Shown here piece by piece: positions 11,432 to 30,556 of a stretch of DNA of 64,000 bases (positions are counted from its first letter, which is position 1; every line of letters starts with the position of its first letter). This DNA is from an uncultured Bacteroidales bacterium (GTDB lineage: Bacteria > Bacteroidota > Bacteroidia > Bacteroidales > VadinHA17), in NCBI GenBank assembly GCA_963843635.1, contig CAWJLF010000007.1:65570-129569 (forward strand). The letters are read 5' to 3'. Made by a program: the position numbers and the translations under genes. The notes beneath the pieces were generated by a model that did not search any database, was not told where the DNA came from, and saw only the letters and a program-made list of their open reading frames with translations.

Positions 11432-12764
11432 ATGGGAAAATTTAAATGGATATTATCACTTTCATTAATCCTGTGTTTCGGGGAGATATCCGCTCAGGAA
11501 AAAAAATGGACACTTGAAGATTGTGTAAACTATGCAGTGATCAATAATATAGGACTTCAGAGACAACGGCTTCAAACCCAGACTGCTGAAGTAAACCTGC
11601 TCAAATCAAAAATGGATATTTTGCCCTCCCTCAATGCTGGATCAGATATGAGTATTCAATATGGAAGGTCTATCGATCCAATTACAAACGGCGTTACCTT
11701 CCTTCAAAACTTCAGGAACGGTTATCAATTGACTTCAGGACTTACCTTATTCAATGGTTTTACTACTATTAATACAATTTCCGCCAATAAATTTATGCTT
11801 AAAGCCGGTCTGGAAAGTGAGAAGATAGTGAGAAACACTTTAATAGTAGATATTATGGGGCAGTACTACCAATTTTTGTACTCCAAAGGACTTGAGAATG
11901 CCTCAAGAATGCAACTTGAGCTTTCAGAGAAGCAGCTTTTCAGGATCAAGAAAATGGTGGAGACAGGGAGAGAAGCATTATCAAAGGAATATGAAATGGA
12001 GAGCCAGGTTTCAGCTGACCGACTATCCTATACAGTTGCTCAGAACTCAGCAAGCCAGGCTCTTACAACATTAAAACATACACTTCAACTGGCTCCTGGT
12101 ACTGAATTTGATCTGGCTATGCCCGATATGGATAACATACTTATTGTTGATAATAATTTCAGTACTGATAGTGTTTATAACCTGGCATCACAAAACCTGC
12201 CACGACTGAAAGAAATTGAGTTTGAACTTAAAGCTTCAAAAAAACAGGTTGCAGCAGCAAGGGGAAAACTTTCTCCTGATCTGACTATTGGAGGGCAGCT
12301 TTTTACTGGATACTATACACTGCTTAATGATACCTCGGCTCATAGCTCATTCTCAACTCAGATGAGAAACAACTTTGGGCAGGCAGTTGGCGTTTCGATC
12401 AATATCCCGATATTCAATAATTTTTCAACAGCAAGAAATATCAAACTTGCCAAGATCAGAAAAAATGATATGGAGCTCAGGCTTGAACAGGAGAAAAACA
12501 ACTTATACACAGATATTGAAAATGCATGTCTTAACTATAACAGAGGCAAAGATGAATTTGCGGCTGCCAATTCAAATTATGAATACAATATCAAATCATT
12601 TGAAGCAGTACAAAAGAAGTTTGAAACAGGTCTTATAGACGTAACAGACTATTCTGCTTGCAAAAACAACTTTATTTAAAGCGGAAACAGAAGCACTCAG
12701 AACAAAGCTTCAACTTGTAATAAGGAAACTGACGATACAATTTTACTCAAGCGGAGAATTATGA
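11432..12764 (+). pseudogene. TolC family outer membrane efflux protein, frame broken near 12658
   Basis: The 415-aa ORF has a signal peptide and TolC-like repeats (WTLEDCVNYAVINNIGLQ). After ...TDYSA the frame shifts by one base and continues ...LFKAETEALRTKLQLVIRKLTIQFYSSGEL-stop, a typical TolC C-terminus. Confidence 0.8.
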
Positions 12765-12872
12765 AACACCTTGAAATGAAAACAATTACTCATCCCACTG
12801 GATTTGACACAGAAGCTCCGGTAAATTAAATGTATAACAATATAAATCACTAATTAATAATAGAAAGTTAAA

Positions 12873-14168
12873 ATGGATAATCCTCGTGAAACAATGGAAA
12901 AGCGATTCCAAAGAAAACAGGCCTTCAGAAGAAGCATTTCGGTTATGCCGGTGCTAGGCCTGGCAATGCTTGTTCTGATTTATATGGCTTTTTTTGCCGA
13001 CCGAACATCAACATATAAAGTTGATAAGGATAAACTGATTATTGAGACATCACTGAAGGCCAGTTTAATGATTATATCACAGTACCGGGAACAGTTGAAC
13101 CGATAAGTACTATTTACCTTGACGCCCAGGAAGGTGGACAGGGTTGAGGAAAAACTTGTGGAAGAGGGATCAATGGTTAAAGAAAGGTGAAGTTATTTTA
13201 CGCCTCTCCAATCCCGATCTCTATCTAAATATTCTAAACAGCGAAGGCCAGCTTGCAGAAAAGGAGAACTTCCTGAGGAATACTCAGATCACTATGGAAC
13301 AGGAAAAACTGCAGATCAGAGCGGGAACTGGTTAACCTTAAATATGATATTGAACGAAAAGACCGTAATTTCAAGCAGAACGAGATCCTCATTAAAGATA
13401 ACCTCATCTCCGAGGAGGAATACTTGCAGATCAAAAGAGGATCTGGACATGGCACTGAAATCGAGAGAGCTTTTCATTGAAAGGCAGAAACAGGATTCAC
13501 TGTTCCGCACTGTTAACGTGGAGACTATAAAGAGCGACCTTATTAATATGAGAAGAAACCTGGCAATGGTAAGGGAGAGGGTAAAGAACCTTGATGTGAC
13601 TGCTCCGGTGGACGGTGAACTTGGTCTTCTGACACCTGAGATCGGTCAGTCAATAGCACGTGGAGAAAACATGGGTCAGATAAATGTACTGACCGCATAT
13701 AAGGTGACTGCCCAGATCGACGAGCACTATATCGACAGGGTAGGAGCGCAGCTCACCGGCACACTTGACCGGCAGGGTAAGAATTATAATCTGATTGTAA
13801 GAAGGGTATATCCCGAGGTAAGGAATGGTACCTTCAAAATAGACATGATATTCCGCGATACGATGCCTAATAATATAAGAACAGGTCAGACATATTATAT
13901 AAGTCTGCAGCTGGGACAACCCAAGGTGTCAGTACTTGTACCTATTGGCGGATTCTTCCAGGAGACAGGAGGCCAGTGGATATACGTCCTCGATCCTACC
14001 GAATCGTATGCAACAAAACGAGATATCTCAATAGGAAGGAAGAATCCAAAATACTATGAAGTCCTTTCAGGACTGAAACCGGGCGAGAAGGTAATAGTAT
14101 CAGGATATGAGACATTCGGTAAAAATGAGAAACTAATATTGAAGAAAATCAAAATAACTAGTAAATAA
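12873..14168 (+). pseudogene. efflux periplasmic adaptor (HlyD/MacA family), about five frame breaks
   Basis: Fragments 12873..13106, 13144..13335 and 13344..14168, plus shifted stretches, read through as one adaptor: ...GQFNDYITVPGTVEPISTIYLDAQEGG..VEEKLVEEGSMVKKGEVILRLSNPDL...LQIRAELVNLKYDIERK...QIKEDLDMALKS.... Breaks lie near 13057, 13141, 13185, 13324 and 13436. Confidence 0.8.
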
Positions 14169-14176
14169 TTAAAATC

Positions 14177-14853
14177 ATGATTAAAACTAATTCTTTAACA
14201 AAGGTCTTCAGAACTGAAGAAGTTGAGACGACGGCACTCAACAAAGTTAACTCTCGAAGTAAAAGAAGGAGAATATGTTGCAGTGATGGGTCCGTCAGGT
14301 TGCGGAAAATCAACTCTTCTTAATATTCTGGGGCTGCTTGACAACCCTTCAGCCGGGTAGCTACATCTTCAACGGAACAGAGGTAGCAAACCTTAAGGAA
14401 CGTGACAGGACAATTTTCCGTAAAGGGAATATCGGCTTTGTCTTTCAGAGTTTTAACCTGATTGATGAGCTAAATGTTTATGAAAATGTTGAACTACCGC
14501 TTATTTACCTTAAGATGAAAGCCGGGGAGAGAAAAAAGATGGTGGAAGATGTCCTGGAAAGAATGAAGATCGGTCACAGGGCCAAGCATTTCCCTCAGCA
14601 GCTATCCGGTGGGCAGCAGCAAAGAGTGGCTATAGCCAGGGCTGTCGTGGCTAATCCGAAGCTTATTCTCGCCGATGAGCCAACAGGTAACCTCGACTCA
14701 AAGAATGGTATTGAGGTTATAAATCTGCTGACTGAACTCAATAAGGAGGGAACGACAATCATCATGGTAACTCACTCTGACAGGGATGCAGGATATGCAC
14801 ACAGGGTGGTTAATCTCTTCGACGGCCAGGTTGTAACTGAAAAAATGGCCTGA
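14177..14853 (+). pseudogene. ABC transporter ATP-binding protein (MacB/LolD-type), two frame breaks
   Basis: The start [25 protein letters not shown] shifts to [35 protein letters not shown] (Walker A). It then shifts into ORF 14338..14853, which carries LSGGQQQRVAIARA and LILADEPTGNLD. Breaks lie near 14250 and 14358. Confidence 0.85.
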
Positions 14854-14991
14854 TCAAAAGGTGACCTGAAATATTCAGGGGTCGCTGAAAAAATGTTACA
14901 ATGGAATTTACCTTTCTGTGTCCCCGGGTGATACTCTGATATCGCCCGGGCTTTACAAGGGTATCCGGTGACTTTTTAAGCGACTTTTTTT

Positions 14992-16363
14992 TTATAGGCC
15001 GAATTTCTTCATTTTATTATAAAGGGTCTGCCTTGTAATCCCAAGCTTTTAAGATACCACGCTTAGGTTATTTCCATACCTCCTCAGGTTGTCTGTTATT
15101 AGTTTCTGTTCCATATCCTCAATAGTCATCTCACCATTCAGCACATTTCGTGTTGATGTTGTAAAGACAAAATCGGAGGGTTTTAAGAATCTGCGAATCA
15201 CTCATTATAACAGCTTTCTCAATCGAATGCTGTAGTTCACTTACATTTCCCGGCCAGTCGTGATTGGCCAGTTTTTCCTGGGCATGTGTGCTTATTTTCA
15301 AATCCGGATTTACCGTAACTGCTCACTATGCATCCTGAGAAAATGATTTGCCAGTATAGGAATATCATCAACCCTGTCACGTAAGGGGAGGTACCTCTAA
15401 TAAGTATAGTATTTATCCTGTAAACAAGATCCTCACTGAAACTTACCTCCTTCTACCATTTCCATAAGGTCACAATTTGTTGCACATATAAGCCTTATAT
15501 CGACGGGTATCTCCTTGTTTGAACCTACCCTTACCACGTTTCTGTTCTGAAGTACACTCAGGAGCTTCGACTGCGCCTGAAGGGAGAGGTTGCCAATTTC
15601 ATCAAGAAAAAGAGTGCTTTTATTTGCCTGTTCAAACTTTCCTTTACGGTCATCCCTTGCATCTGTAAAAGCTCCTTTCACATGTCCAAACAGCTCACTT
15701 TCAAAGAGAGATTCGGTTATTGAACCCATATCAACACTTACCATCAGTTCTCCGGCCCTGTTTGAAAGCCTGTGTATTTCCCTGGCCACTAGCTCCTTCC
15801 CTGTCCCATTCTCTCCTGTAATAAGAACATTTGCGTCTGTTCCGGCCACTTTACGGACAATATTCATTACATTGATCATGGTAGGAGAAGCACCAAGAAC
15901 TATTTTTTCGCCTCCCTTATTTATCTCACTCTTAAGTAGCTGATTGTCTTTTTTAAGGTTTGCTGCTTCAAGTCGCGACAATCTTAGTTTCCATGCAACA
16001 TTGATTGTAGCAAGAAGTTTGGACTCATTCCAGGGCTTCATAATAAAATCAACGGCTCCTTCCCTGATGGCTTTAACAGCCAGCTCCACATCACCATAAG
16101 GCAGTAACAATCACAATACTTATATTACTGTCATATGTAAAGATCTCACTCATCCAGTATAAGTCCCTCATTGCCATTATTCATACCTGCTTTGAAATTC
16201 ATGTCAAGCATCACAATATCAATATCATTACTTTTAATACGTATGAATACGATTTGGATCGGTAAGTCGTTATAACCTTCTCAAACTCATTTTGCATGAT
16301 CAGTTCAAGGGCTTTGAGCAGGCCTTTATTGTCATCAACTACAAGTAAAGTGCCTTTTGTCAT
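14992..16363 (-). pseudogene. sigma-54-dependent response regulator (NtrC/Fis family), heavily frame-broken
   Basis: The receiver N-terminus is MTKGTLLVVDDNKGLL...DIVMLDMNF. The AAA+ core lies in ORF 15433..16110 (VLITGENGTGKELVAREIH, ESELFGHVKGAFT). Shifted frames give FREDLxYRINTIL..PPLRDR, WPGNV.EL and the C-terminal HTH LGITRQTLYNKMKKFGL-stop. Many single-base frame breaks are present. Confidence 0.8.
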
Positions 16364-16400
16364 AATATACTTTTTATCAAAAGACTGGAATAAAAAATAA

Positions 16401-16488: not shown

Positions 16489-17357
16489 TCAACTAATCAA
16501 TCCGGTACCTGCTTCTTTCATAATATCCTCAGGGATATTATCAATAGCGTATTATCTTATATCTCTGAAAAATATCTCCGACCCCTCCGATTCAATCTGA
16601 ATTTTGCCCCTTGTAAGCGGTATATGCTGTCTCCCTCAGCTGACGTGAATTATGGAGTATCATATTCACAACTCCGTTCATCATATGCACGCTTGTGTTC
16701 CAAAACAGTACAGATCGACAGTATTCCATTCCCCTGCCGGTTTTTCGGCGTCCGGATATTTAATGCAGTGACGTCCATCAGGACTTTCAGTGCTGAAGGT
16801 ATACAGGTTGCCGTCTTTATTATATATATATGTGCTGTCATTTCCCTTATTAGCATGCACGTCGAAAATTGCCCCGGCACAAGCCCAGTAATCACCGCAG
16901 TCTCCCTGTTCAATCTGAAACTCATGGGACCGGAGCCAGAAGCCTCCATCAGCGCCCTGGGGACCGACACCATAGTACATAAGTCCGGCGTCTTTTATTC
17001 CGGTGCTATTGGGAGGCCATTGAAGATTGCCCCATTTGAATTGCAGCTGAAGATGAAAATTCTCATATTCCCCTGTTGTGGAAATGCCTCCATACTGTTC
17101 ACCGGAAATTCTAAGGACTTTTTCACCGACAGATCAACCACACTAAAAACGTTAAGAGGGTCAACATTCAGTCCGACAGGTATAGTATCCCATTTATTCT
17201 GAACGGTATCATAACGTGGCCCCAGAAAGGTATCCCAACCAGTAAGGTCTTTACCATTGAGAAGAGGCTGCCATTTAATATTTTCCGATGAATGGTTCAT
17301 GCAACCGCTTAGAATTAGTGCCAATAATAATGTGTAAAATAAGTTTTTGAGATTCAT
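16489..17357 (-). pseudogene. DUF1080 (3-keto-disaccharide hydrolase-like) lipoprotein, several frame breaks
   Basis: The N-terminus is MNLKNLFYTLLLALILSGC...WQPLLNGKDLTGW. The middle part is HEFQIEQGDCGDYWA...AGEWNTVDLYCFG. The shifted C-terminus is ...MNGVVNMILHNS...GKIQIESEGSEIFFRDIRII. These are the canonical DUF1080 motifs, spread over at least four frames. Confidence 0.7.
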
Positions 17358-17561: not shown

Positions 17562-17874
17562 ATGACTGTAAAATTAAATGCAAACGAAGTTGTCCTGAAA
17601 GCCGGAGATACAAACCAGGTAATCGACAACAATACTGTTGAAGGGAAACTTATAGTAACGAATCAGAGACTATATTTTAAAACCATGAATGCTGAAACGC
17701 GAAAAATTCAATCTTGAAATATTGTTCGATAATATTCTGGAAGTGATTTATTTCAGCAAAGGGATGCTTTTTGGAGTCAAAGGACTCAATGTAGTCACCA
17801 GGGATGGTAAATCGCATTCGTTCCCGCTTAAGAAAAGAGATGAGATAGGACAATTAATAAATAAAATGTACTGA
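17562..17874 (+). pseudogene. small GRAM/PH-like domain protein, one frame break near 17690
   Basis: MTVKLNANEVVLKAGDTNQ...GKLIVTNQRLYFKT continues after a one-base shift into ORF 17689..17874 (...FNLEILFDNILEVIYFSKG...). The xLxxTNxRLxF motif is typical of bacterial GRAM/PH-like domains. Confidence 0.45.
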
Positions 17875-17912
17875 TACTTATCAATCTATATATATTCCGT
17901 CTTATAATTAAA

Positions 17913-17946
17913 AAAATATCTGCCCGAAAGGCAGATATTTTTATTT
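17913..17946 (+). terminator. rho-independent terminator
   Basis: An 11-bp stem pairs aaatatctgcc with ggcagatattt around the loop cgaaa. It is followed by a T-rich run, 39 nt after the stop at 17874. Confidence 0.7.
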
Positions 17947-18330
17947 TATGTGACCCTGTCTCCCCAAGTGCTTTTTACCCCCCATCCCCCCCAAGGGGGG
18001 GCCAATACAACCCCCTCGCCCTTCGGGGGGCTAATGCTTTGGTTCCCCTCCTGGGAGAGCCTGCCACGCTTAGCGTGGGGCCAGGGGTGGGTTTAGGTTC
18101 TTTTACTTGCCCACGCAATACAACTCGCTCATTTCATTCGCTCAAACAGTATTGCTTACTAAAGGCCCTCCGCAGCAAGCCTCAAAACATTCGCTTTACC
18201 CCAAAATTCTCTGAGGCCGGATGAAATCCAGAAAAATATTAAATATCCTGTGGATTAGCCTCCCCCCTGAAGGGGGAGAAATGCTCTGCAACCGAGTGAA
18301 ATTACACTTATATACAGAGAATTAGTCGGG
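17947..18330. repeat. GC-rich non-coding block made of several short strong hairpins
   Basis: Hairpins seen: cccccccaagggggggg, ccccctcgcccttcgggggg, ccacgcttagcgtgg, gcaatac..gtattgc and ctcccccctgaagggggag. The block lies between convergent genes. Its composition contrasts sharply with the AT-rich flanks. Confidence 0.4.
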
Positions 18331-20706
18331 TCACTCATACCTCAGTGAATCTACCGGATTCTTCATTGCAGCTCGGAATATTTTAAATATTAAGGTAAAA
18401 GTAGTGGCCGAACACATGATCAGGACTGCCAGCAATAGCATACCGGGTCCGATTTTCACATAATAATCCCAAATGCTGTCAAGAAGCATATCAGACATGT
18501 AATAACCGCCGGCACATCCCAGTATTGATGAAACGGCAAGGACAATCAGGAATTTCCTGCTGACAAGAAACATTATAAGAGGGACCGGAGCACCCTGAAT
18601 CTTCCTTATACCAATTTCTTTCGTCCTTCTTATAATATCAAGTGAGACGAGATTATACATTCCTATCAAAGACAATAGCGTAGCTACAATAGCAAGAAAT
18701 AAATTTACCTTCAGTATGCTTCCATTTATGTCTTTTTCCTCCTGCATAATATCCTCCTGAAGTAATCCTCTAAAAACATCATTAATAGCCAGGCTTTTCC
18801 ATTTAAGTCTTATAAAATCAAGTATACCTGGCAGATCTTCCGATTTAGCTTTCACAACGAGAATGCCATATTGATCTGACCCTGAAATTCTTAACATTGT
18901 CGGCTCAATTTTATTCCAGACTCCATTGGTATAAAAATCTTTCACAACCCCAACAACGGTCAGCCTGGTAGTGTCATAAAGGGTAATTGTTTTCCCTATC
19001 GGATCATTCCATCCAAAATCATCAACCAGCTTTTGATTCACAATGATAGATCCACTTGACCTGTCTGCTGCCAGCCTATCCTCATTAAAGAGACGTCCCT
19101 CAACAAGGTGCAGGCCCATCGTCTGTGCATAACCAGGCCCGATATCCAGTACATCAACCTCAAGAGGCCTGTCCTCATCCTTTATCGGTCTGCGATAAGC
19201 TCCGAATCCAATATGTTGTTGAGTGCCTTCTGCTGAAATTACTTTTGGATCAGTCAATACTTCATTGCGCAGGGATGTGAAATTCTCCGGGGGTACAGGA
19301 ACAACTATCAATTGATTTTTGTTATATCCCAGGTCAATAGTCTTCTGGAAGTTTGCATTTTTTGCAAATACAATACCCATCACCAGTGCCATAACAGAAA
19401 TTGAAAACTGTAATGCAAGAAGAATAATTGAAAGTTTTCCTGAACCTTTTACATCAGAGTCACCTTTCAGAACATTCACCGGGTTGAAACCGCTAACATA
19501 CAAAGCAGGATAAACACCCGCAATAAAACCTGTAATAACAAGAAGCAGTATAATAAAGATCCAGAAGAATGCATACCTGGTAAGTGTAAGGGTAATGGTC
19601 ATATATGCCCATAAATTGCTGTAAGCCGGTACCAGGAATTCAGCAATTACAATACCCGTTATAAGAGCCAGGAAACAGATAATAAATGTTTCGAGCATAA
19701 ATTGAGAAACAAGCTGTCTCCTCTGCCCTCCAAAAGTTTTCCTTAATCCTATTTCTTTAAGCCTCTTACTAAACGTCGCCCGTGATGTATTGGCAAAATT
19801 AAAACAGGCAATGAGAAGAATGAAGAGTGCCATAACAGGCGGGGCAACAACAGCAGCAGGGTGAAGGGAAGGGAAAAGTCCGGAGGACCAAATATTCCTG
19901 GAACTTTTTCCAACATCTTTCAACGGAACAAGATTAAACCTGTTGATTTTAAAATCTTCCCTGGCCCGGTTCTGTACCGGGAGGTAATTCTTCATCGACT
20001 GTGTTATGGAAGAAAGAGCTGATTTATCAGGAACCATTATAAATAGTGCTGTAACCCACATTTTCCAGTCTGTGTCATTAAATTCGCGGAGTAAAGGCAG
20101 ATTATCGAAGTTGGCCAGGATATCTATTCTGAAGCTTGAATTGTCCGGCAGATCTTTAAAAACAGCCCCCACTGTAAAGGTGAATTCCTTGCCTTTATCA
20201 TTGATAAGTGATATTGCTTTGCCCACCGGATAATCCTTTCCGAAAAGCCTATTGGCCGTTTTCGCACTTATAAGTACATTACCTTGTCCTTCAATTGATT
20301 TCATATTCCCATTTATTACAGGGAAAGTGAATATGTCAAGAAATTCAGGATCAATAAAAGAGATATCCATTGAAAAAAGATCATCCCCTTTCTTTACCGG
20401 AAAACCGGCCCGCGCTAATCTTGCTGATTTCTCTATTCCCGGAATATCCTTTTTTATCTGAAGACCAAGTGTAGCAGGCACAATACCATATTCCTGTTCC
20501 CTGTTTTCCATGTCACGAAAACTGGTGACCCGGTAAATTTTGTCGAAATTTAAATTTGTCCTGTCAAACTCATAGTTAAACATGTGGTTGAAAAATGCAA
20601 CTATACAAACTGACAGGGCGATACCCAGCCCAATAATATTTATCAGGGTAAATAATTTGTTCTTTATCAGGTTTCTGAAAGTAACAAGCAGGTAATTTCT
20701 AAACAT
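18331..20706 (-). CDS. ABC transporter permease, MacB-like with two FtsX domains
   Basis: 791 aa. It has an N-terminal TM, a large periplasmic domain, an FtsX 3-TM block, a second periplasmic domain and a second FtsX block. The C-terminus NPVDSLRYE is typical of this Bacteroidota family. Confidence 0.85.
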   Translation of the reverse strand: MFRNYLLVTFRNLIKNKLFTLINIIGLGIALSVCIVAFFNHMFNYEFDRTNLNFDKIYRVTSFRDMENREQEYGIVPATLGLQIKKDIPGIEKSARLARAGFPVKKGDDLFSMDISFIDPEFLDIFTFPVINGNMKSIEGQGNVLISAKTANRLFGKDYPVGKAISLINDKGKEFTFTVGAVFKDLPDNSSFRIDILANFDNLPLLREFNDTDWKMWVTALFIMVPDKSALSSITQSMKNYLPVQNRAREDFKINRFNLVPLKDVGKSSRNIWSSGLFPSLHPAAVVAPPVMALFILLIACFNFANTSRATFSKRLKEIGLRKTFGGQRRQLVSQFMLETFIICFLALITGIVIAEFLVPAYSNLWAYMTITLTLTRYAFFWIFIILLLVITGFIAGVYPALYVSGFNPVNVLKGDSDVKGSGKLSIILLALQFSISVMALVMGIVFAKNANFQKTIDLGYNKNQLIVVPVPPENFTSLRNEVLTDPKVISAEGTQQHIGFGAYRRPIKDEDRPLEVDVLDIGPGYAQTMGLHLVEGRLFNEDRLAADRSSGSIIVNQKLVDDFGWNDPIGKTITLYDTTRLTVVGVVKDFYTNGVWNKIEPTMLRISGSDQYGILVVKAKSEDLPGILDFIRLKWKSLAINDVFRGLLQEDIMQEEKDINGSILKVNLFLAIVATLLSLIGMYNLVSLDIIRRTKEIGIRKIQGAPVPLIMFLVSRKFLIVLAVSSILGCAGGYYMSDMLLDSIWDYYVKIGPGMLLLAVLIMCSATTFTLIFKIFRAAMKNPVDSLRYE

Positions 20707-20720
20707 TCTTTACAATTTCA

Positions 20721-23141
20721 TTATTCATACTTAAGTGACTGTGCCGGGTTGACATGTGCTGCCCTAATGATACGATAACTTATTGTTAGTAAGGCAATAC
20801 CCAGAGCAACAGACAGGCCGGCTACAAAACTGAATACACCAATATTTATCCTGTAATAAAAATTCTCTAACCACTTACCCGAAATATAATAAATTATTGG
20901 AGTTGCAATAATGGCTGAAATTGATACAAGTAAAATTATTTCTTTTGAAACTTCATAATAAATTCCGGCTATAGAGGAACCCATGGCTTTTCTTACTCCT
21001 ATCTCCTTTGTTCGCTGCTCAACAGTAAATGAGGTTAGTCCGAATAGGCCAATTGATGCAATGAAGATTGCCAGTATTGAAAAAATAACAGCCATTTGTG
21101 CGTTCTGCTTTTCCTGAATGTACATCTTCTCAAAATCCTGGTCAACAAAATAATATTGCAATGGACTATTGGCAGTAAACTCTTTCCATATATTTTCAAT
21201 CTGGTCGATTGTTTGTGAATAATTCTTTTCTGAAAGCTTTACAGACAAATAACCCCATAAAAAATTATCGGTTTTAAACCGTAGTATACATGGATCAATA
21301 GGATTACGCAGTGATTTGAAATTGAAATTCTTCACAACCCCAATTATTGGGATATAATTAACTTTGCCTGAGTCCTGTGGTTGCATGAATCTTACTTTTT
21401 CAATGTCGGTAATGCCAAAATCCTTAATTGCAGCCTCGTTGACTAGGCAAGCTTGCTCATCAGTGGAATAAAGTTTATTAAAAGAGCGACCCGAAGCGAG
21501 TGTCATGCCATAAGTATCCAGGTAGTCATAATCGATCCATGTTGTCATCATAAGGAATGTCTCATCTTTTCGTCCTTCAAGCATATAAGCGTTATTATTG
21601 TTTGTACGACCAGGAACAGCAGTCGAACTTGATATATTTATCACACCCGGTATCTCCTTAACTGCCGCTTTAAATGACTTCACTTTACTTCCCAGTGCTT
21701 CTGCCCGGTTTATAACTATAACCTGCTCCTTATTGAAGCCAACATCTTTGTTAAGCATATATTTTATCTGACGGTACATAATCATTGTACCAATTATTAG
21801 TAAAATTGATACAGTAAACTGAAAAACAACAAGTACCCTCCTCATGCGGCCATTCTTCATGCTATTTTTAATATTTCCTTTAAGTACCTCATAAGGACTG
21901 AAAGATGAAAGAAAAAGTGCAGGATAGCTTCCTGCAAGAAATCCAACAAAAACAGAAAAGAGTATCAGCACAGGAACTGTAAACATATTAGAAAACAAAC
22001 TAAGCCTGAGATTAGAACCAAGTAAATTATTAAAATACGGAAGAGTCAACTTAATTAGGATTAAGGCGAGTATAAGAGCCGTAAATGAAAGGATAAAGGA
22101 TTCTGATAGAAACTGTACCATAAGCATGCCTCTTGATGAACCTCCGATTTTTTTTATTCCAACTTCTTTAGCTCTCCTTGAAGCCTGGGCGGTTGACAGG
22201 TTCATAAAATTAATTGAGGCTATCAGAACGATAAGGATGGCGATACTTCCAAAAATTATCAGGTATTTCGGATCAGTTGATGATTTAAATTCCTGATCTA
22301 CAGATGTATCAAGATGAATATTGGTAAGCTTTTGCAGATAGAACCTGTATTTATTTCCCTGGGACTCGAATTCACTTATAGATATTCCCATATATTTTTG
22401 TAATTCTGGTCCAACATATTTTTCAATTAAGCCGGGGAATTTTGCATCGACATTCCTATAATCTGAGTTCGGTTTTAGGAGAAGGTAAGTACTGAAACTA
22501 TTGTTTGTCCATGCACTATTTCTAGACCTTGGGTTTGTCATAAATGAAGCAATAATATTTGCTTTAAAATGCGAATTTTCCGGAATATCTGCCATAACGC
22601 CGGAAACTGTGTAGAGTACTGAATCTGATCCCACTTTGAGCCTTTTGTCAACTGGGTCTTCATCTCCGAATATTCTTTTTGCAGTTGATTCAGACAGAAC
22701 AAGTTTTCGTGGGGCATTTAGCAAATTATCCTTATCGCCCTTTATCACTGGTATTGAGAAGAAATTAAAGAATGAGGAGTCCACTTCAATCAGATGTTCC
22801 TCTGTAAAAGACTGTTTATTGTGTTCAATAATAGTAGGCCCCCATCCATTCATTCTAAGAAAGTCCTCAACTTCAGGAAATTCCTCCAGAACTGTCGGCC
22901 CGATAATTGCCGCTGTTGATGAAGCTGTAACTTCCTGTCCACCAATTTTACCATTAAGGATAAGCCGAAAAATCCTGTCTTTTTTAACATTATACCTGTC
23001 ATAGCTTACTTCATTAATTACAAAAAGCGCTATTAGTAAACTGCAGGCAATTCCTATTGAAAGACCAAGAATATTAATTATGATATAAGATCGTTGCCTC
23101 TTAAAAGATCTCAGACTATGTTTAATTAAATTGCCAATCAT
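20721..23141 (-). CDS. ABC transporter permease, MacB-like double-FtsX (paralog group A)
   Basis: 806 aa. N-terminus MIGNLIKHSLRSFKRQRSYIIINILGLSIGIACSL; C-terminus NPAQSLKYE. It is very similar to the next two genes. Confidence 0.85.
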   Translation of the reverse strand: MIGNLIKHSLRSFKRQRSYIIINILGLSIGIACSLLIALFVINEVSYDRYNVKKDRIFRLILNGKIGGQEVTASSTAAIIGPTVLEEFPEVEDFLRMNGWGPTIIEHNKQSFTEEHLIEVDSSFFNFFSIPVIKGDKDNLLNAPRKLVLSESTAKRIFGDEDPVDKRLKVGSDSVLYTVSGVMADIPENSHFKANIIASFMTNPRSRNSAWTNNSFSTYLLLKPNSDYRNVDAKFPGLIEKYVGPELQKYMGISISEFESQGNKYRFYLQKLTNIHLDTSVDQEFKSSTDPKYLIIFGSIAILIVLIASINFMNLSTAQASRRAKEVGIKKIGGSSRGMLMVQFLSESFILSFTALILALILIKLTLPYFNNLLGSNLRLSLFSNMFTVPVLILFSVFVGFLAGSYPALFLSSFSPYEVLKGNIKNSMKNGRMRRVLVVFQFTVSILLIIGTMIMYRQIKYMLNKDVGFNKEQVIVINRAEALGSKVKSFKAAVKEIPGVINISSSTAVPGRTNNNNAYMLEGRKDETFLMMTTWIDYDYLDTYGMTLASGRSFNKLYSTDEQACLVNEAAIKDFGITDIEKVRFMQPQDSGKVNYIPIIGVVKNFNFKSLRNPIDPCILRFKTDNFLWGYLSVKLSEKNYSQTIDQIENIWKEFTANSPLQYYFVDQDFEKMYIQEKQNAQMAVIFSILAIFIASIGLFGLTSFTVEQRTKEIGVRKAMGSSIAGIYYEVSKEIILLVSISAIIATPIIYYISGKWLENFYYRINIGVFSFVAGLSVALGIALLTISYRIIRAAHVNPAQSLKYE

Positions 23142-23177
23142 ATAATGTGATTCAGACTATGATAATTCATCCTCTTT

Positions 23178-25598
23178 CTATTCATATTTAAGTGACTGCG
23201 CAGGATTAACCCGTGCTGCCTTCAGGACACGGTAACTGATTGTCAGTATGGCAATCCCCAGGGCAATCAACATACCGGCCAGGAAGCTGAATACTCCGAG
23301 GTTTATCTTATAATAGAAGTTTTCCAGCCATTTGTTTGCAATATAGTAAATGACAGGCCAGGCTATAAGGGCTGAAACAGAGACCAGGGTCACTATCTCT
23401 TTTGATATCTCAACATATATTCCTGCTATTGATGATCCCATTGCCTTCCTTACACCTATCTCTTTTGTTCGTTGCTCCACCGTGAATGATGTAAGTCCGA
23501 ATAAACCCAGTGATGCAATTAAGATTGCAAGTATTGAGAAAATAACGGCCATCTGTGCATTTCTTTTTTCCTGTATATACATCTTCTCAAAATCCTGATC
23601 AAGAAAGTAATACTGCATCGGGTTATTCTGCACGAATCCTTTCCATTGTGTCTCTATCTCGCTTATTGTCTTTGCATAGGTATTGGCATTCAATCTCACA
23701 GTTACATATCCCCAAAGCATGCCATCATTCTGGAATTTAAATATATAGGGCGACACAGGGTTACGAAGTGATTCAAAATTAAAATTGCTGACCACTCCTA
23801 TTATAGGAAGATAGTTTACCTTACCGGAATCTTGTGGGTCCATAATCCGTGTTGTACTGAAATCTGTTATTCCAAAGTTCTTTATTGCACTCTCATTGAG
23901 AATACATGCATCTTTGTCAGTTGAATAACTTTCGTTAAAAAATCTTCCCGAATCGAGCTTTATGCCATATGTATCAAGAAAATTATAATCACACCAGTTG
24001 GTCACCATAATAAAGCTTTCATCTTCCCTGCCTTCTATCCTGTATCCGTTGGTATTATTGACCCTTCCCGGAACCATCGTAGAACTTGTAATATTGATCA
24101 CACCGGGTATTTTTCGTACCACTTCCTTGAATGCCTTCATTTTTGGTCCAAGTGCTCCAGCCCTGTTTATGACAATCAGCTGTTCCTTATTGAATCCCAC
24201 ATCTTTGTTCAGCATATAGTTAATCTGGCGGTACATTATCATGGTACCAATAATCAGAAGGATTGACACCGCAAACTGGAAGACTACAAGCACCCTTCTC
24301 AGGCGTCCGTTCTTCATGCTGTTCTTTACACTTCCCTTTAATACTTCATAAGGACTGAAAGACGATAAGAAAATCGACGGATAACTTCCGGCCAACAAAC
24401 CTACCACAATCGAAAACAACAGAAGTAACGGCACTGTAAACCATCTGGCAAAAAGTTGCAAGTTGAGATCAGTACCCAGAAGGTTGTTAAAAAATGGAAG
24501 AGAAACCTTTATGAGTATTATTGCCAGTACGAGAGAGACAAAAGAAAGAATGAATGATTCGGAAAGAAACTGGGTGATCAACATGCCTCGGGAAGATCCC
24601 CCTATTTTCTTAATTCCTACTTCTTTGGCTCTTTTAGCAGCCTGTGCGGTGGACAGGTTCATGAAATTAATAGCAGCTATCAGAACGATCAGTATCGCAA
24701 TACTACCAAAAATTATAAGAAACTTTGGATCACTGGCTGCCTTAAACTCCTGCTGTATTGAATTATCGAGATGGATGTCTTTTAGATTCTGAAAGAAGAA
24801 CCTGTATTTATTTCCCTGTTTCTCCATATCCTCCATCGACAGACCCATATATTGTTTAAGTTCAGGTCCTACATACTTTTTCAGTAGCTCAGGCATCTTA
24901 TCCTCAACAGTTTTGTAACTGGTATTGGGCTTTAGTAAAAGGTATGTGCTGAAGCTGTTATTTAGCCAGATAGGGCTATTGGACCGCGGATTAGTCATGA
25001 AAGAGGTAATGATATTAGCCTTAAAATGTGTGTTTTCAGGAATATCAGCCATTACACCGGACATTACATACCTCATGTGTCGCTGCCTATCTTAATAGTT
25101 TTGTCTATAGGGATTCTCATCCCCGAATATCCTTTTGGCCGTAGAGGCTGACAGTACAGCTTTGTGGGGAGCATTCAGAAGATTATCCGGATCTCCTTTG
25201 AGTACAGGTATAGAGAAGAAATTAAAGAAGGAGGAGTCGGCCTGAATCAGGTCTTCCTCAGTAAAAGTCTTGTTATTATAATCTATGATAGTCGGTCCCT
25301 GTCCTGTCATTCTCAGGAAATCCTCAACCTCGGGAAATTCTCTCAGTAATGTTGGCCCCATAATTGCTGGTGAGGTAGCAATCGTCAACTCCTGGCCCCC
25401 GATCTTTCCATTCAAAATTGCCCTGAATATCCTGTCTTTCTTTACATTATATTTATCATAACTAGACTCATTTATGACAAACAAGGCTATAACGAGGCTG
25501 CAGGCTATGCCAATAGAAAGGCCAAGTATGTTAATTAAAACATATCCTCTCTGTCTTTTAAAAGATCTTAGACTGTGTTTTATAAGATTACGTAACAT
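23178..25598 (-). pseudogene. ABC transporter permease, MacB-like double-FtsX (paralog group A), interrupted by an in-frame stop
   Basis: ORFs 25092..25598 and 23178..25076 are in the same frame and together align with both neighbours. The junction reads NPYRQNY-stop-DRQRHMRY, where the paralogs have NPIDxxIKxGxDTxxY. A shifted frame gives IDKTIKIGSDT. Confidence 0.8.
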
Positions 25599-25701
25599 GA
25601 TAATTTTCTTTTAAAAAAAGGTAAATAATTGTCTTTCGTGTTATAAAAAGGTATGTTTCCCTGTTTCGGTTGATCAGACCTTCAGGAAATCACCCTGATA
25701 T

Positions 25702-28122
25702 CTATTCATATTTCAGTGACTGAGCCGGGTTGGTTCTGGCCGCCCTGAGAATTCGGTAGCTGATTGTAATCACAGCTATTCCAAGAGCAATTGACAGCCC
25801 CGCAATAAAAGTGAATATTCCCAGGCTTATACGGTAATAGAAATTCTCAAGCCATCTCCCTGCTACATAGTAAATTAATGGGCAGGCAATAAGAGCGGAA
25901 ACCGATACAAGTATTATTATCTCTTTTGAGATGGCAATATAAATACCTGCAACCGTAGACCCCATAGCCTTTCTTACTCCGATCTCCTTGGTTTTCTGCT
26001 CAACTGTGAATGATGTCAGTCCGAATAAACCCAGTGATGCAATAAATATAGCAAGTGCTGAAAACAGCACTGACAGCGTTGCATTTTGTTTCTCCTGGTT
26101 ATACATCTGTTCAAAATCGGCATCAACAAAATAATATTGGAGTGGGGTATTTGCAGTAAATTCCTTCCATTTGCTTTCAATACCGGTGATAGTTTTCTTA
26201 AAATCCTGTGCCGTCAGCCTGACAGTAAGATACCCGAAGTTTATATAGTCATTCTTGAACATAAAAATATAGGGATGTATTGGATTCCTGAGTGATTCGA
26301 AGTTGAAATTTTCTACTTCTCCAATAACATGCAAAATCTGTCCTTTTTCAGAACCATCGGGTCTGATGAAGTGTGTCTGGGTCAGGTCTGTTATTCCAAA
26401 ATCCTTCACAGCAGCCTCGTTCAACAGGCAGGCATCTGCATCAGTGGAAAACGACTGATCAAACCCTCTTCCTGAAACCAGTTTCATACCGTAAGTTTCC
26501 AGATAGTCATAGTCAATGAAGTTTGTTTGCATAAGAAAGCTCTCATCCTTTCGGCCCTCCATCCCATAACCGTTATTATTATTGTTTCTTCCCGGAACAG
26601 CTGATGAGCTGGCAATACTGATAACCCCCGGGACTCCTTTCACTGCATCCTTAAACGACTTGATCCTGTTCCCAAGAGCTTCTGCCCTGTTTATTACCAG
26701 CAGTTGTTCCTTATTGAAACCGACATTCTTGTTAAGCATATATTTTATCTGCCTGTACATTATCAGGGTTCCGACGATAAGCAGAATCGATATTGTAAAC
26801 TGGAAGACAACCAGCACTCTTCTTAATTTGCCGTTCTTCATGTTGTTTCTCATTTCTCCTTTCAATACCTCGTAAGGGTTAAAGGAAGAAAGATAAAACG
26901 CCGGATAACTGCCTGCAAGAAAACCCACAAAGATGGAGAAAATCAGAAGTACAGGCATGACATACCATGAAGATAACAGATTAATAGTAAGATCAGTACC
27001 CAGCATGTTATTAAAATATGGTAAGAGAAGTCTTATGATTATAAGGGCGATAATAAGAGAAATAAATGAAAGGATAAATGATTCTGAAAGAAACTGAGTA
27101 ACAAGTGCGCCTCTTGAAGAACCACCGATCTTTTTAATTCCTACCTCTTTGGCTCTTTTTGCAGCCTGCGCTGTGGAAAGATTCATGAAATTGATTGCAG
27201 CTATTATTAAAATTAATATTGCTATGCTTCCAAAAATTATCAGATACTTGGGATCGCTTGCAGGTTTGAACACTTGCTGGATAAGCGGATTAAGATGTAT
27301 ATCAGTAAGTTCCTGGCAATAATAACCGTAGCTGTTACCCTGCTTTAAGAAATTATCCAGGGATATTCCCATGTATCTCTGAACCTGGGGACCGACATAT
27401 TTCTTAATCATTTCCGGTATCTTATCATTAACACTCTTCATGCTTGAATTGGGCTTAAGCAGAAGGTATGTACTGTAGCTGTTGCTCAGCCATATAGGGT
27501 TAGCTGAACCAGGATCAGTCATAAAAGAAGATATCATGCTGGCCTCAAAATGCGACTTTGCAGGAACATCACCCATGACACCCGAAACAATATAGTGTAC
27601 TGTGTCTGTACCCAACTTTATTGCTCTATCAATCGGGTTTTCAGTTCCAAATATTTTCCTGGCTGTCGACTCCGATAGTACTACCCTGTGCGGGGCATTA
27701 AGCAGATTTTGGGGATCGCCTTTTAAAACAGGTATAGAAAAGAAATTAAAAAATGAAGAGTCAGCTTCCACGAGATGATCCTCAGTGAATGTCTGGTTAT
27801 TATACTCTACAACTGTTGGGCCGGTACCTGTCATTCTCAGAAAATCTTCCACTTCAGGGAATTCTTTTACCATGGTGGGTCCCATAGGAGCACAGGTGTA
27901 TGCTCCGACAATTTCCTGCCCTCCAATCTTACCGTTGAGGATCAGTCTTACAATTCTGTCTTTTTTTACATTGAACTTATCATAACTTGATTCGTTGATA
28001 ACATAAAGTGCTATAAGCAAACTGCAGGCTATGCCTATCGATAGCCCCAGAACATTTATTACTATGTAAGCACGTTGCCTTTTAAAGGATCTTAAACTGT
28101 GTTTGAGAAGATTAGTGAACAT
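25702..28122 (-). CDS. ABC transporter permease, MacB-like double-FtsX (paralog group A)
   Basis: The ORF track gives 25702..28176. The Met at 28122 (MFTNLLKHSLRSFKRQRAY...) aligns with the paralog starts. Confidence 0.85.
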   Translation of the reverse strand: MFTNLLKHSLRSFKRQRAYIVINVLGLSIGIACSLLIALYVINESSYDKFNVKKDRIVRLILNGKIGGQEIVGAYTCAPMGPTMVKEFPEVEDFLRMTGTGPTVVEYNNQTFTEDHLVEADSSFFNFFSIPVLKGDPQNLLNAPHRVVLSESTARKIFGTENPIDRAIKLGTDTVHYIVSGVMGDVPAKSHFEASMISSFMTDPGSANPIWLSNSYSTYLLLKPNSSMKSVNDKIPEMIKKYVGPQVQRYMGISLDNFLKQGNSYGYYCQELTDIHLNPLIQQVFKPASDPKYLIIFGSIAILILIIAAINFMNLSTAQAAKRAKEVGIKKIGGSSRGALVTQFLSESFILSFISLIIALIIIRLLLPYFNNMLGTDLTINLLSSWYVMPVLLIFSIFVGFLAGSYPAFYLSSFNPYEVLKGEMRNNMKNGKLRRVLVVFQFTISILLIVGTLIMYRQIKYMLNKNVGFNKEQLLVINRAEALGNRIKSFKDAVKGVPGVISIASSSAVPGRNNNNNGYGMEGRKDESFLMQTNFIDYDYLETYGMKLVSGRGFDQSFSTDADACLLNEAAVKDFGITDLTQTHFIRPDGSEKGQILHVIGEVENFNFESLRNPIHPYIFMFKNDYINFGYLTVRLTAQDFKKTITGIESKWKEFTANTPLQYYFVDADFEQMYNQEKQNATLSVLFSALAIFIASLGLFGLTSFTVEQKTKEIGVRKAMGSTVAGIYIAISKEIIILVSVSALIACPLIYYVAGRWLENFYYRISLGIFTFIAGLSIALGIAVITISYRILRAARTNPAQSLKYE

Positions 28123-28186
28123 TATTTTAAGTTTTTTTAACATTTCATAGACGGAACAAAAACACCTTTGCTGCATCTAAAAAAAA

Positions 28187-30556
28187 TTATTCAACCTTAA
28201 GAGCCTCGGCAGGATTAGTTGTAGATGCCTTATAAGCCTGAAAACTAACGGTTATCAATGCTATTAAAATTGCACCCAAAGCTATTCCTGCAAATACCAG
28301 CACGCTTAAGTCGATCCGGTATGCAAACTGTTTAAGTAGTTTTTCTACAATTAACCAGCCCAGTGGAAATGCAATAATGATTGAAATGATGACCAGGACC
28401 AGAAACTCACTTGACAGTGTATACATAACAGTAATGGAACCGGCTCCCATAACTTTCCTTATACCTACTTCATTTGTTCTTCGTTCAGATGAATATGACG
28501 ATAATCCATAAAGCCCAAGACAGGCAATTATTATTGCAAGAATGGTAAAGTACTTTAGCAAGCCTGTGAGGCGCATCTCCGACCTGAACAGTTTATCATA
28601 ATCCTGATCAACAAATGTGTACTCAAGAGGATATTCAGGGATAACCTCATGCCATGTCTTTTCCAGAGATTTGAGTGATGCAGGGATATTCCCAGTCAAC
28701 CTGACAAGAATTACATTTAGAAAATTCATGTCTGCCAATGCAAATGCGAGTGGTTCAATTGGCTGATCTGCCCCTTTAAAATGGAAATTTTTCATTACTC
28801 CTACAATCTTACCGTTCAAGCCCATAAACCTGAAGTTCTTACCTACCGGGTCTCCAATATCCATGATCTTGGCAACCTCCTCGTTGATAAGGAAGTTACC
28901 CGTTGTATCGCGGGCCATATCTGCAGGAAAGTCTCTCGAAAAGTCACGACCGGAAACAAGTTCTATCTTCATTGTCTTCAGGTAATCATAATCAACACCG
29001 CAGTTACCTATAAGTACCTGTTTATCAGGATCTTTACCGTCCCAACTGGCGCCTCCTGAATTACTCCCTATATTTACAGGATTCCAGGTTGAGGCGGTCA
29101 CACCTGCAATAAGGGTTTCTTTCTTAAGTTCTGTCTTGAGGGAATAATACTTGTCTTTCATGGAATCACTCATTGGGATACAAACCAGTTTCTCCTTATC
29201 GAAGCCCAGATCTTTGTTCTGTAAATATTTGAGCTCCTTATACAGGAATACAGCACAAACGGCGATGAGTATCGATAGTGAAAACTGGATGATCACAAGT
29301 GCCTGCCTGAACCTGACGCTGCCTCTTCCTGAAACGGCCTCTCCTTTGAGAACGGCAACGGGTTTGAATGATGACAAATATAAAGCAGGATAGATGCCTG
29401 AAATAATACCGGCAATAAATCCAGTCACAAGGAAACTGATAATAAACCGAGTGTGCAAAAGATCTGAGATAATAAAACTTTTGCCTGAAACGCTATTAAA
29501 GATATTGAGCGATAATCCAACCAGCATGATGGCAATCACCATGGACAGAGCCACCAGTAACATAGATTCCATCATGAATTGGAAGATCATTCTCCCCTTG
29601 TCAGCCCCGGCAACTTTCTTTATACCTATCTCCTTGCTACGTCCTGAAGCTTTGGCGGTTGACAGGTTTATGAAATTAATGCATGCTATCAGTAAGATGA
29701 ATATTGCAATTAGTGAAAAGATAGTCACTGCAAGAACAGGACCCTTTGTTTCAAAAAATCCAAACTGGCCATGTAGATGAATATCCAGAAGAGGAAATAG
29801 CGAATATTTTGTAGTGCTCTCAGGATTATGCTCAAGTACCACATCCGTAAGTTTTTTATCAACATCCTTTATATCAGCGCCTTTTTGAATAAGCACAAAA
29901 GTAAAGATGGAATTATTACCCCATGAATCGCTAGTTGCGCCAATACTCTTCAGGAATGAATAGGGTAATATACCCTCAAATCGCAACATAGAATTCCTGG
30001 GAGGGTCTTTTAACAGACCGGTGACAGTAAACTGGATATTATTCTCAGCAGTTAATACTTTCCCAACAGGATTTTCATCACCAAAATATTTCTTTGCGAG
30101 TTTCTGTGTAAGGACTATTGAATTGGGAGAGCTTAGGGCAGTCAAGGGATCACCTGCCAGCATGGGCAATGTGAATATCCTTAAGAATCCTGAATCAGCT
30201 GCTACAATGGAGGATTCAAAAAATACTTTATCCTCATACCTGAATAAAGTACGTGGGAGACCGTTGTAACGGGTCTGTTCCTTAATCTCCGGTATTTTCT
30301 GCATCCATTCAGGTCCACTCGGATAAGGTGTGACTGTAACATGATATCGTCGGCCTGAATAGAACTGATCTTCCTCAACACGGTATATACTACCCGCGTC
30401 CCTGTTGAATTTCTCAAAGCTCATCTCATCCTGTACCCATAATAAGATAAGCAAAGAAGCAGCCAGACCAATAGCCAGTCCGGAAACATTAATTAAAGTA
30501 AAAATCTTATGCCGGGAAATATTCCGGAAAGCAATTTTGAAGAAGGTTTTGATCAT
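28187..30556 (-). CDS. ABC transporter permease, MacB-like double-FtsX
   Basis: 789 aa with the same architecture as the others but more divergent. C-terminus NPAEALKVE. Confidence 0.85.
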   Translation of the reverse strand: MIKTFFKIAFRNISRHKIFTLINVSGLAIGLAASLLILLWVQDEMSFEKFNRDAGSIYRVEEDQFYSGRRYHVTVTPYPSGPEWMQKIPEIKEQTRYNGLPRTLFRYEDKVFFESSIVAADSGFLRIFTLPMLAGDPLTALSSPNSIVLTQKLAKKYFGDENPVGKVLTAENNIQFTVTGLLKDPPRNSMLRFEGILPYSFLKSIGATSDSWGNNSIFTFVLIQKGADIKDVDKKLTDVVLEHNPESTTKYSLFPLLDIHLHGQFGFFETKGPVLAVTIFSLIAIFILLIACINFINLSTAKASGRSKEIGIKKVAGADKGRMIFQFMMESMLLVALSMVIAIMLVGLSLNIFNSVSGKSFIISDLLHTRFIISFLVTGFIAGIISGIYPALYLSSFKPVAVLKGEAVSGRGSVRFRQALVIIQFSLSILIAVCAVFLYKELKYLQNKDLGFDKEKLVCIPMSDSMKDKYYSLKTELKKETLIAGVTASTWNPVNIGSNSGGASWDGKDPDKQVLIGNCGVDYDYLKTMKIELVSGRDFSRDFPADMARDTTGNFLINEEVAKIMDIGDPVGKNFRFMGLNGKIVGVMKNFHFKGADQPIEPLAFALADMNFLNVILVRLTGNIPASLKSLEKTWHEVIPEYPLEYTFVDQDYDKLFRSEMRLTGLLKYFTILAIIIACLGLYGLSSYSSERRTNEVGIRKVMGAGSITVMYTLSSEFLVLVIISIIIAFPLGWLIVEKLLKQFAYRIDLSVLVFAGIALGAILIALITVSFQAYKASTTNPAEALKVE

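Follow-up and report, generated by a model that had tools for sequence, protein, structure and literature searches.

Here we describe an ATP-binding cassette (ABC) transporter locus in a 64,000-nucleotide stretch of DNA, called the window below, from contig CAWJLF010000007.1 (GenBank assembly GCA_963843635.1) of an uncultured Bacteroidales bacterium of the VadinHA17 lineage. Coordinates refer to the window unless another contig is named. A plus-strand operon encodes a TolC-family outer-membrane factor, a periplasmic adaptor and a stand-alone ABC ATPase, and no permease; convergent to it lies a minus-strand array of five duplicated permeases of 789-806 aa (P1 to P5, 18331-30556). We lean, somewhat beyond an even judgement, towards the explanation that the two belong to a type VII (MacB-superfamily) ABC efflux module of the DarBCD or MacAB-TolC kind, in which one chassis would be shared and the membrane part would be a family of interchangeable permeases.

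The locus is a further example of a known and very common permease family, in a layout that is real and conserved. Specific to it are the permease-free chassis operon, the convergent rather than co-operonic array and the presence of two promoter classes.

Locus organization

The genes of the operon, the regulator and the array are as follows.

11432-12679, plus strand: TolC-family outer-membrane factor, 415 aa; Pfam OEP (PF02321) in two stretches, 1.4e-39
about 12873-14168, plus strand: periplasmic adaptor (HlyD/membrane-fusion protein type, DarC-like); about eight single-base indels, fragments in three frames
about 14180-14853, plus strand: stand-alone ABC ATPase of the MacB/LolD/DarD type; two single-base insertions, near 14247 and 14352
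about 15100-16363, minus strand: NtrC-type sigma-54 response regulator (REC, AAA+, HTH_8); about ten single-base indels, at least four pieces
18331-20706, minus strand: P1, duplicated MacB/FtsX permease of 791 aa, the most divergent type
20721-23141, minus strand: P2, duplicated permease of 806 aa, P2 type
23178-25598, minus strand: P3, 806 codons, P2 type, with an in-frame TAA at 25092-25094
25702-28122, minus strand: P4, 806 aa from the second ATG, P2 type; the open frame extends to 28176
28187-30556, minus strand: P5, duplicated permease of 789 aa, the first gene of the array

The initial annotation, made from the sequence of the window, had described five consecutive minus-strand permeases of about 790-806 aa convergent to the TolC operon, and a sigma-54 response regulator between the two gene sets. 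The coordinates of the open reading frames (ORFs) bear out the array, and the regulator is present as an NtrC-type homologue, though frame-broken here; it matches PF00158 with 204 bits, and the intact orthologue of the congener G007 consists of REC, Sigma54_activat and HTH_8 domains. The single TolC, adaptor and ATPase genes that were placed on the plus strand stand as gene content by homology, but the adaptor and the ATPase are not open frames in the window and TolC is shortened. For comparison a conspecific assembly was used (GCA_964463235.1, contigs L017 and L018, the latter CAYXDH010000189.1), in which L018 carries intact TolC (448 aa), adaptor (419 aa) and ATPase (224 aa) genes. The window TolC loses its C-terminus where an indel-rich block starts (about 12.6 kb), and the first 40 codons of the ATPase are out of frame. 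An exact-protein look-up of TolC and P1 gave no match, and near-identical proteins (P0002, P0122) came from the conspecific assembly. The intact adaptor, P0122, scores 140.4 bits with the TIGR01730 RND_mfp model (cut-off 94.9).

The gene order TolC-adaptor-ATPase is kept in seven congener loci (L002-L008) and on L018. Identity between species is 94-96% for the ATPase (the conspecific 224-aa protein against the G007 and G010 orthologues), 84-86% for the adaptor, 77% for TolC and 71-77% for the permeases. Within the array, the TAA of P3 falls in an out-of-frame patch of about 12 codons, and the start of P4 at 28122 is favoured because a promoter motif sits within the longer open frame.

Permease architecture and fold

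Each of P1 to P5 contains two FtsX stretches and MacB_PCD according to Pfam, and hydropathy indicates eight hydrophobic helices in a 1+3+1+3 pattern. From the N-terminus, transmembrane helix (TM) 1 is followed by a first periplasmic domain of about 250 aa and by TM2-4; after a cytoplasmic linker of some 30 residues come TM5, a second periplasmic domain of about 230 aa and TM6-8. By hydropathy the proteins begin at TM1, with no N-terminal nucleotide-binding domain fused; the ATPase is a separate gene of 224 aa.

An AlphaFold2 model of P5, computed from an alignment of 64 diverse sequences, reached a mean predicted local distance difference test (pLDDT) score of 88.9 and a predicted template modelling score (pTM) of 0.82. 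It has eight TM helices, two periplasmic domains and short helices after TM2 and TM6, at the positions of coupling helices. An earlier model of P2 from a shallow alignment was poor (pLDDT 62); it was treated as a pointer only and gave way to the P5 model. With Foldseek the nearest structure to the P5 model is Escherichia coli YbbP (9ge6_A, E 1.7e-19), matched over the whole chain with about 890 aligned columns, followed by MacB (5gko, 5lil, 5nik; E 1e-12 to 1e-14), Spr0694-0695 (5xu1), LolCDE and BceAB. Single periplasmic domains are closest to a Porphyromonas gingivalis domain, 3is6 (TM-score 0.76-0.80), and also match 3ftj. Since the layout of the model and the Foldseek matches agree, the earlier description of the permeases as fused double-FtsX pseudo-dimers with two large periplasmic domains is correct, as Pfam and hydropathy also indicate.

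Homologues of the permeases are named merely "ABC transporter permease" or "FtsX-like permease family protein"; they come from uncultured Bacteroidales. About half of the 150 best-scoring listed relatives of P5 (e.g. P0244, P0248, P0252) begin with some 74 additional N-terminal residues that the permeases here lack; these relatives probably represent the 'permease prefix' or PadR-linked form of the family.

Divergence and ancestry of the permeases

P2, P3 and P4 share pairwise 69-73% protein and 67-70% DNA identity, with 26 nt as the longest identical run. P5 is about 34% and P1 about 26% identical to them at the protein level. The outer two copies are divergent, as the initial annotation had stated, but the three central copies, which it had called very similar, are so only relative to P5 and P1. 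Synonymous divergence (dS) among the three is saturated (above 1.6 or undefined); the ratio of non-synonymous divergence (dN) to dS, at most about 0.12 where computable, is for that reason uninformative. Recent tandem amplification or gene conversion was considered and rejected, given the DNA identity, the short identical runs and the grouping of P3 with copies of another species. Judged by these values, P2, P3 and P4 are old paralogs.

A tree of 54 permeases (quick maximum-likelihood run with IQ-TREE, in which deep branches among divergent paralogs are unreliable) contains three clades with 100% support in the Shimodaira-Hasegawa-like approximate likelihood ratio test (SH-aLRT): a P1 type, a P2 type and a P5 type. 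P1 forms a clade with its orthologues from G007, G010 and G016 (SH-aLRT 100%), to which it is 71-73% identical, and P3 groups with both copies of G008 (SH-aLRT 95). In eight congener loci the P5 and P2 types occur in all or nearly all and the P1 type in half, and the P2-type clade has one to three copies per genome. Because of the three orthologous clades and the grouping of P3 across species, the array is regarded as an old, maintained set and not as a recent amplification. It is best described, on this comparative evidence, as a set of three orthologous types of ancient origin (P1, P5, and P2 with three copies) that occur genus-wide under purifying selection, with a variable copy number of P2. 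Two 'extra' permeases within the array of G003, G007 and G018 have their orthologues here on other contigs (C1:73986 and C9:49567), so array members move between loci.

Among the 24 intact paralogs of the genome, conservation is highest in the second coupling helix, RTKEIGVRKAMG, and in the C-terminal NPAxSLKYE helix, and lowest in the periplasmic domains.

Partner genes in the genome and the genus

The genome holds 28 duplicated permeases in total and one adaptor of the window type, the window-type adaptor protein having served as query for the adaptor census across genomes. Three of its 13 MacB/LolD-type ATPase genes adjoin duplicated permeases (in the window and on contigs C1 and C17); most of the remainder have single-FtsX genes (400-480 aa) next to them or in the vicinity, and the one on C4 stands alone. 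Nineteen of the permeases are found in three clusters that each hold, or in the window adjoin, one ATPase gene, and the other nine have no ATPase gene within several kb. The 1:1:1:5 ratio of TolC, adaptor, ATPase and permeases in the initial annotation holds locally but not for the genome as a whole, and a check for ATPase or adaptor genes dedicated to each permease elsewhere found no such set, only the three ATPases and one adaptor for all 28. The C17 cluster (324483-361024), larger than that of the window, comprises twelve duplicated permeases (four split) in one array at 324-357 kb, one central ATPase, a divergent sigma-54 regulator-kinase pair and a single-FtsX gene. No TolC-family gene is present on C1 or in the C17 array.

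The same proportions recur across the genus. Twelve congeners have 5-32 permease matches and 5-10 ATPase matches per genome, and exactly one adaptor of the window type each. Outside the genus, in eight genomes from other families of the order, the permease and an ATPase of at least 60% identity co-occur in four, three of which also have the adaptor; permease, ATPase and adaptor are all missing from the other four. The TolC-adaptor-ATPase operon lacks a permease in five of the eight species checked (this genome, G000, and G007, G018, G006 and G008). The three others have a permease gene right behind the ATPase, one of the P2 type in G014 and one of another type in G010 and G016.

Promoter motifs

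Two classes of promoter-like motif were found at the locus.

11346-11362, plus strand: sigma-54-like -24/-12 element TGGCAT-N5-TTGGCA, 70 nt upstream of the TolC start
30584-30608, minus strand: extracytoplasmic function (ECF)-type motif GCAAC-N16-CGTC, 27 nt upstream of the P5 start
28150-28174, minus strand: ECF-type motif GCAGC-N16-CGTC, in front of P4
17494-17518, plus strand: ECF-type motif GCAAC-N16-CGTC, in front of a GRAM-like gene; at the same place in six congeners

An element of the form TGGCAY-N5-TTGGCA lies upstream of TolC in five other species and on the conspecific contig, and in a further species (L008) the spacing is canonical. A scan of the window with the generic sigma-54 consensus gave 46 sites against 44 expected, which is chance level, and only the conserved site upstream of TolC was retained. 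Eight sigma-54 activator genes are present in the genome, and five of them are neighbours of FtsX-type clusters. On C1 a canonical sigma-54 promoter, TGGCATAAGCCTTGCT (TGGCAT-N5-TTGCT; 69408-69423, minus strand), lies about 180 nt upstream of the paralogous ATPase-permease operon and is divergent from genes for an NtrC-type regulator and a histidine kinase.

The ECF-type motif upstream of P5 is kept in six of the seven congeners with a P5 orthologue (L009, L010, L011, L013, L014, L015), and the motif also precedes the orphan permeases C1:73986 and C17:436896. In 159 kb of sequence from the loci of eight congeners, GCA[AG]C-N16-[CTA]GTC occurs 29 times against about 4 expected from its genome-wide density, and 17 of the 29 matches are directly upstream of permease genes. 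With AAC at -35 and CGT at -10, the motif has the form of an ECF sigma promoter. For both promoter classes the sigma factors assigned are putative. Because individual permease genes carry promoters of the ECF-sigma type, induction by envelope stress is suggested.

Contig C3 (7030-10684, minus strand) contains an ECF sigma gene (10033-10593, 186 aa) preceded by GCAGC-N16-CGTC and followed by a putative single-TM anti-sigma gene and two genes for secreted beta-rich proteins, one of them again with the motif. This ECF sigma factor is a candidate for the control of the permease genes.

Comparison with known systems

The permeases align over their full length with the ADOP model TIGR03434 (model positions 6-803), with 224.1 bits for P1, 277.4 for P2, 287.3 for P4 and 303.4 for P5 against a cut-off of 622.3. 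The other named models are also missed: DarB by the permeases (up to 170.8 bits, cut-off 700), DarC by the adaptor (190, cut-off 450) and DarD by the ATPase (279.7 for the intact conspecific protein and 209.7 for the 188-aa fragment in the window, cut-off 375). As all these cut-offs are missed, the permeases, adaptor and ATPase are relatives and not members of ADOP, DarB, DarC and DarD. The intact ATPase further scores 221.7 bits with LolD (cut-off 307.75) and 201.8 bits with YbbA, and the MacA model gives 44.8 bits for the adaptor (cut-off 342). The score with the LolE model is 18.6 bits (cut-off 540).

Like the window permeases, ADOP proteins have about 800 aa and the order MacB_PCD-FtsX-MacB_PCD-FtsX, and they form large paralog families and tandem arrays in which most copies lack an adjacent ATPase gene. 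ADOP genes are presumably, by the description of the family, essentially never next to an ABC ATPase gene ('orphan'), whereas three clusters here have one and one of these also adjoins an adaptor and TolC. The lineage is Bacteroidales, not Acidobacteria, and no PadR or prefix domain is present here. Published examples of ADOP arrays come from Acidobacteria and from a flavobacterium, Psychroflexus torquis, whose ten-paralog ADOP cluster is highly translated, with high protein abundance (PMC3914696).

DarBCD, the darobactin exporter of Photorhabdus, consists of permease, adaptor and ATPase (PMC8442675). As here, a double-length permease is combined with a membrane-fusion adaptor and a separate ATPase (NF038008, NF038010, NF038007). 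DarC and DarD are the best-scoring named models for the adaptor and the ATPase, and DarB is second best, at full length, for the permeases. In contrast to DarBCD there are five permeases, which lie outside the ATPase operon, TolC is within the operon, and the ORFs listed for 6-33 kb include no precursor of a ribosomally synthesized and post-translationally modified peptide and no radical S-adenosylmethionine gene.

In YbbAP-TesA (PDB 9GE6-9GE8), too, the permease is a pseudo-dimer in one polypeptide, with two coupling helices and two periplasmic domains of the Porter/Sabre type. YbbP binds two copies of the separate ATPase YbbA via coupling helices after TM2 and TM8, and YbbAP works by mechanotransmission (PMC12646458). 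The window permeases have two highly conserved coupling helices, and the same 2:1 binding is proposed for them. YbbP differs in having 10 TM with linking helices TM5-6, where the window permeases have 8 TM and the cytoplasmic linker; its sequence identity to them is about 12%, it is single-copy, and the partner of YbbAP is a periplasmic esterase and not an adaptor with TolC. BceB carries two extra linking helices as well, and a review of MacB from 2018 lists only 10-TM fusions (PMC5985334).

With MacAB-TolC (PDB 5NIK, 5GKO, 5LIL; PMC5985334) the system shares the MacB fold in each half (4 TM and a periplasmic domain, with a coupling helix after TM2), an HlyD-type adaptor and a TolC-family duct in the operon, and the likeness extends to the presumed mechanotransmission mechanism. 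MacB, however, is a homodimer with a fused N-terminal nucleotide-binding domain, whereas here the two halves are fused and the ATPase is separate and, as we read it, shared. LolCDE, with its heterodimer of two diverged FtsX permeases and two copies of LolD, is the non-fused equivalent of the pseudo-dimer and is among the fold matches (9rlc, 7arh); it uses no adaptor or TolC, and no LolA-type partner was identified here.

Proposed mechanism

In the favoured explanation the plus-strand operon would provide the TolC-family duct, one adaptor and one stand-alone ATPase, and the adjoining array five ADOP-like permeases, each a covalent pseudo-dimer with two coupling helices. Each permease would bind two copies of the ATPase, in the manner of E. 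coli YbbP, and hand its substrate into the adaptor-TolC duct, at least in the case of the P2 type. Across the genome the 28 permeases would share the three associated ATPases and the one adaptor. Expression would be two-tiered, the chassis operon being read from a sigma-54-type promoter beside the NtrC-type regulator and individual permeases from ECF-type promoters.

By the comparative counts and the logic of the operons, the permeases, provided that they are driven by ATP at all, can hardly avoid sharing the ATPase, and for the same reasons at least the P2 type appears tied to the TolC chassis. For P1 and P5 conserved proximity is the one ground for suggesting use of the duct. The proposal of the initial annotation that interchangeable permeases operate on one scaffold is supported as far as the ATPase is concerned, by these counts, by the permease-free operons and by the P2-type permease behind the ATPase in G014. 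A more far-reaching reading, a plug-in pump in which a very strongly conserved ATPase-adaptor-TolC chassis under a sigma-54 two-component system is loaded with ECF-induced double-permease heads, is offered tentatively and is on the doubtful side; if it were true, the cell would change the substrate range of one trans-envelope pump by choosing among 5-30 permeases.

Several observations weigh against the shared module. The sigma-54-like element upstream of TolC has a spacing one base longer than the consensus, and the promoter motifs of the permease array differ from that of the TolC operon, so that the two need not be co-expressed. The ATPase-permease clusters on C1 and C17 have no TolC or adaptor gene nearby, so that the duct is not a general partner of the permease family. 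The periplasmic domains of the P1, P5 and P2 types are about 25-35% identical, and a lone adaptor would consequently have to dock on very different surfaces. Divergence among P2-P4, which had been expected to focus on the periplasmic domains, follows this direction (65-70% identity against 77-82% in the membrane parts), but the excess is modest, with dN about 1.5-fold higher than in the membrane parts. Finally, the regulator is disrupted in both assemblies, by the indels in the window and by an 11-nt deletion in L018, and may be defective in the species, whatever the quality of the window consensus. The deletion (L018, 4340-5693) shifts the frame ahead of the helix-turn-helix domain.

ADOP-like double permeases, with 21,883 clusters at 50% identity (E <= 1e-30), are among the largest uncharacterised transporter families, and a literature search found no functional study of such permease arrays in Bacteroidota. 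What the locus adds bears on the partners of these permeases: the adaptor is single-copy, the ATPase is nearly invariant, both co-occur with the family, and on this comparative argument they must serve many permeases. The shared-chassis explanation, if true, would represent a new way to diversify efflux specificity in environmental and gut-related Bacteroidota.

Alternative explanations

The alternative that survives best, although we consider it rather unlikely, is a division of functions, in which only the P2 type would use the adaptor-TolC duct while P1, P5 and most of the other 20-odd paralogs would use a shared ATPase without TolC. The C1 and C17 clusters, with an ATPase but without TolC and adaptor, fit this view, and so does G014: the one permease found right behind this ATPase in a relative with a short operon is of the P2 type. 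The best whole-chain fold match, YbbP, is no TolC pump (PMC12646458), and the Psychroflexus ADOP cluster holds an acyl-CoA thioesterase gene that recalls TesA (PMC3914696). However, the permease behind the ATPase of the TolC operon in G010 and G016 is not of the P2 type, most of the congeners examined keep P1, P5 and the P2 copies next to the TolC operon, and no TesA-like or LolA-like partner gene was identified next to the array.

A second alternative concerns the frame breaks in the operon. About 40 one-base indels relative to relatives are confined to 12.6-17.9 kb, a sharply bounded block that holds nearly all of the frame breaks, and hit the adaptor, ATPase, regulator, DUF1080-type and GRAM-like genes; those of the adaptor and the ATPase were mapped by alignment with seven congeners. 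In the conspecific assembly, L017 matches 18842-23529 (the P1-P3 region) with 99.87% DNA identity and 0 gaps, and window positions 10595 to about 12500 are virtually identical in L018. Identity to L018 falls to 95.6%, with 19 gaps, from about 12.6 kb on, and to 87.4%, with 39 gaps, in 14.99-16.6 kb. Block substitutions are mostly in third positions, with 90 synonymous and 11 non-synonymous changes in the adaptor and 46 and 1 in the ATPase. Because they are so overwhelmingly synonymous, the block is taken as a genuinely different allele under purifying selection; it resembles a second allele that circulates in the population, or a second strain threaded into the assembly. As about 90% synonymous substitutions are unlike a long-dead gene, the breaks are probably errors of the consensus, and we have good confidence that they arose from a second, low-coverage strain threaded into the assembly.

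Real decay of the chassis, with adaptor, ATPase, regulator and neighbours as pseudogenes and the permeases served, if at all, by the C1 ATPase, is by comparison improbable. It would account for the concentration of the indels in one 5-kb block while the adjoining 12 kb of permease genes have a single defect, for the separate deletion in the conspecific regulator, and for an intact C1 ATPase that is 78% identical and could stand in. Against it, the synonymous pattern is unexpected for a long-dead gene with eight frameshifts, and an allele diverged by 5-13% between flanks of 99.9% identity points to a second strain in the consensus. The genes are intact in 12 of 12 congeners and on the conspecific contig. 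Frame breaks occur elsewhere in the window too (a GH3 gene in three pieces, the out-of-frame patch of P3, and breaks in other genes), ORF-poor regions are patchy across the genome (3.87 Mb, 40% GC), and completeness is 73.8% despite an assembly of 19 contigs.

That the duplicated permeases are ATPase-independent, as passive sensors or scaffolds for ECF or two-component signalling in the way that BceB informs BceS, is very improbable: most paralogs are orphans without a nearby ATPase, regulator genes adjoin many permease clusters and Acidobacteria ADOP relatives are fused or linked to PadR/HAAS signalling modules (bioRxiv 10.1101/2020.09.24.301986), but the most conserved segments of the paralogs include the two coupling helices, which contact the nucleotide-binding domains in MacB, LolCDE and YbbP (PMC12646458), the permease family and the ATPase subfamily tend to be found in the same genomes, and BceB itself requires BceA.

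Neighbouring genes and other features

Between the regulator and the array lie three further features.

16684-17357, minus strand: DUF1080/3-keto-disaccharide-hydrolase-like lipoprotein gene (PF06439, 1.3e-13); frame broken, two overlapping frames
17562-17874, plus strand: frameshifted, conserved GRAM/PH-like protein gene (about 102 aa); intact orthologues of 101-103 aa in six congeners
17912-17942, no strand assigned: hairpin resembling a bidirectional terminator, between the GRAM-like gene and the P1 end

The DUF1080-type gene is probably a neighbour outside the pump. The GRAM-like gene occupies the position between the regulator and P1 in six congeners and may be a member of the regulon of the permeases; with E 0.009, its match to Pfam GRAM is weak and falls short of the cut-off. 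From the terminator hairpin to the end of P1 extends a GC-rich spacer of about 390 nt (17947-18330), and a scan of 10.5-31.5 kb, spacer included, against Rfam gave no match. Other neighbours of the locus, besides the DUF1080-type gene, were identified as a rhamnosidase, a DUF362 protein and a GH3 beta-glycosidase; the ORF at 8818-9540 has no Pfam match. The GH3 gene (30642-33090, minus strand) is split into three ORFs of 266, 371 and 162 aa, and intact orthologues of about 800 aa adjoin the P5 orthologue or lie near the array in three congeners (L009, L010, L012).

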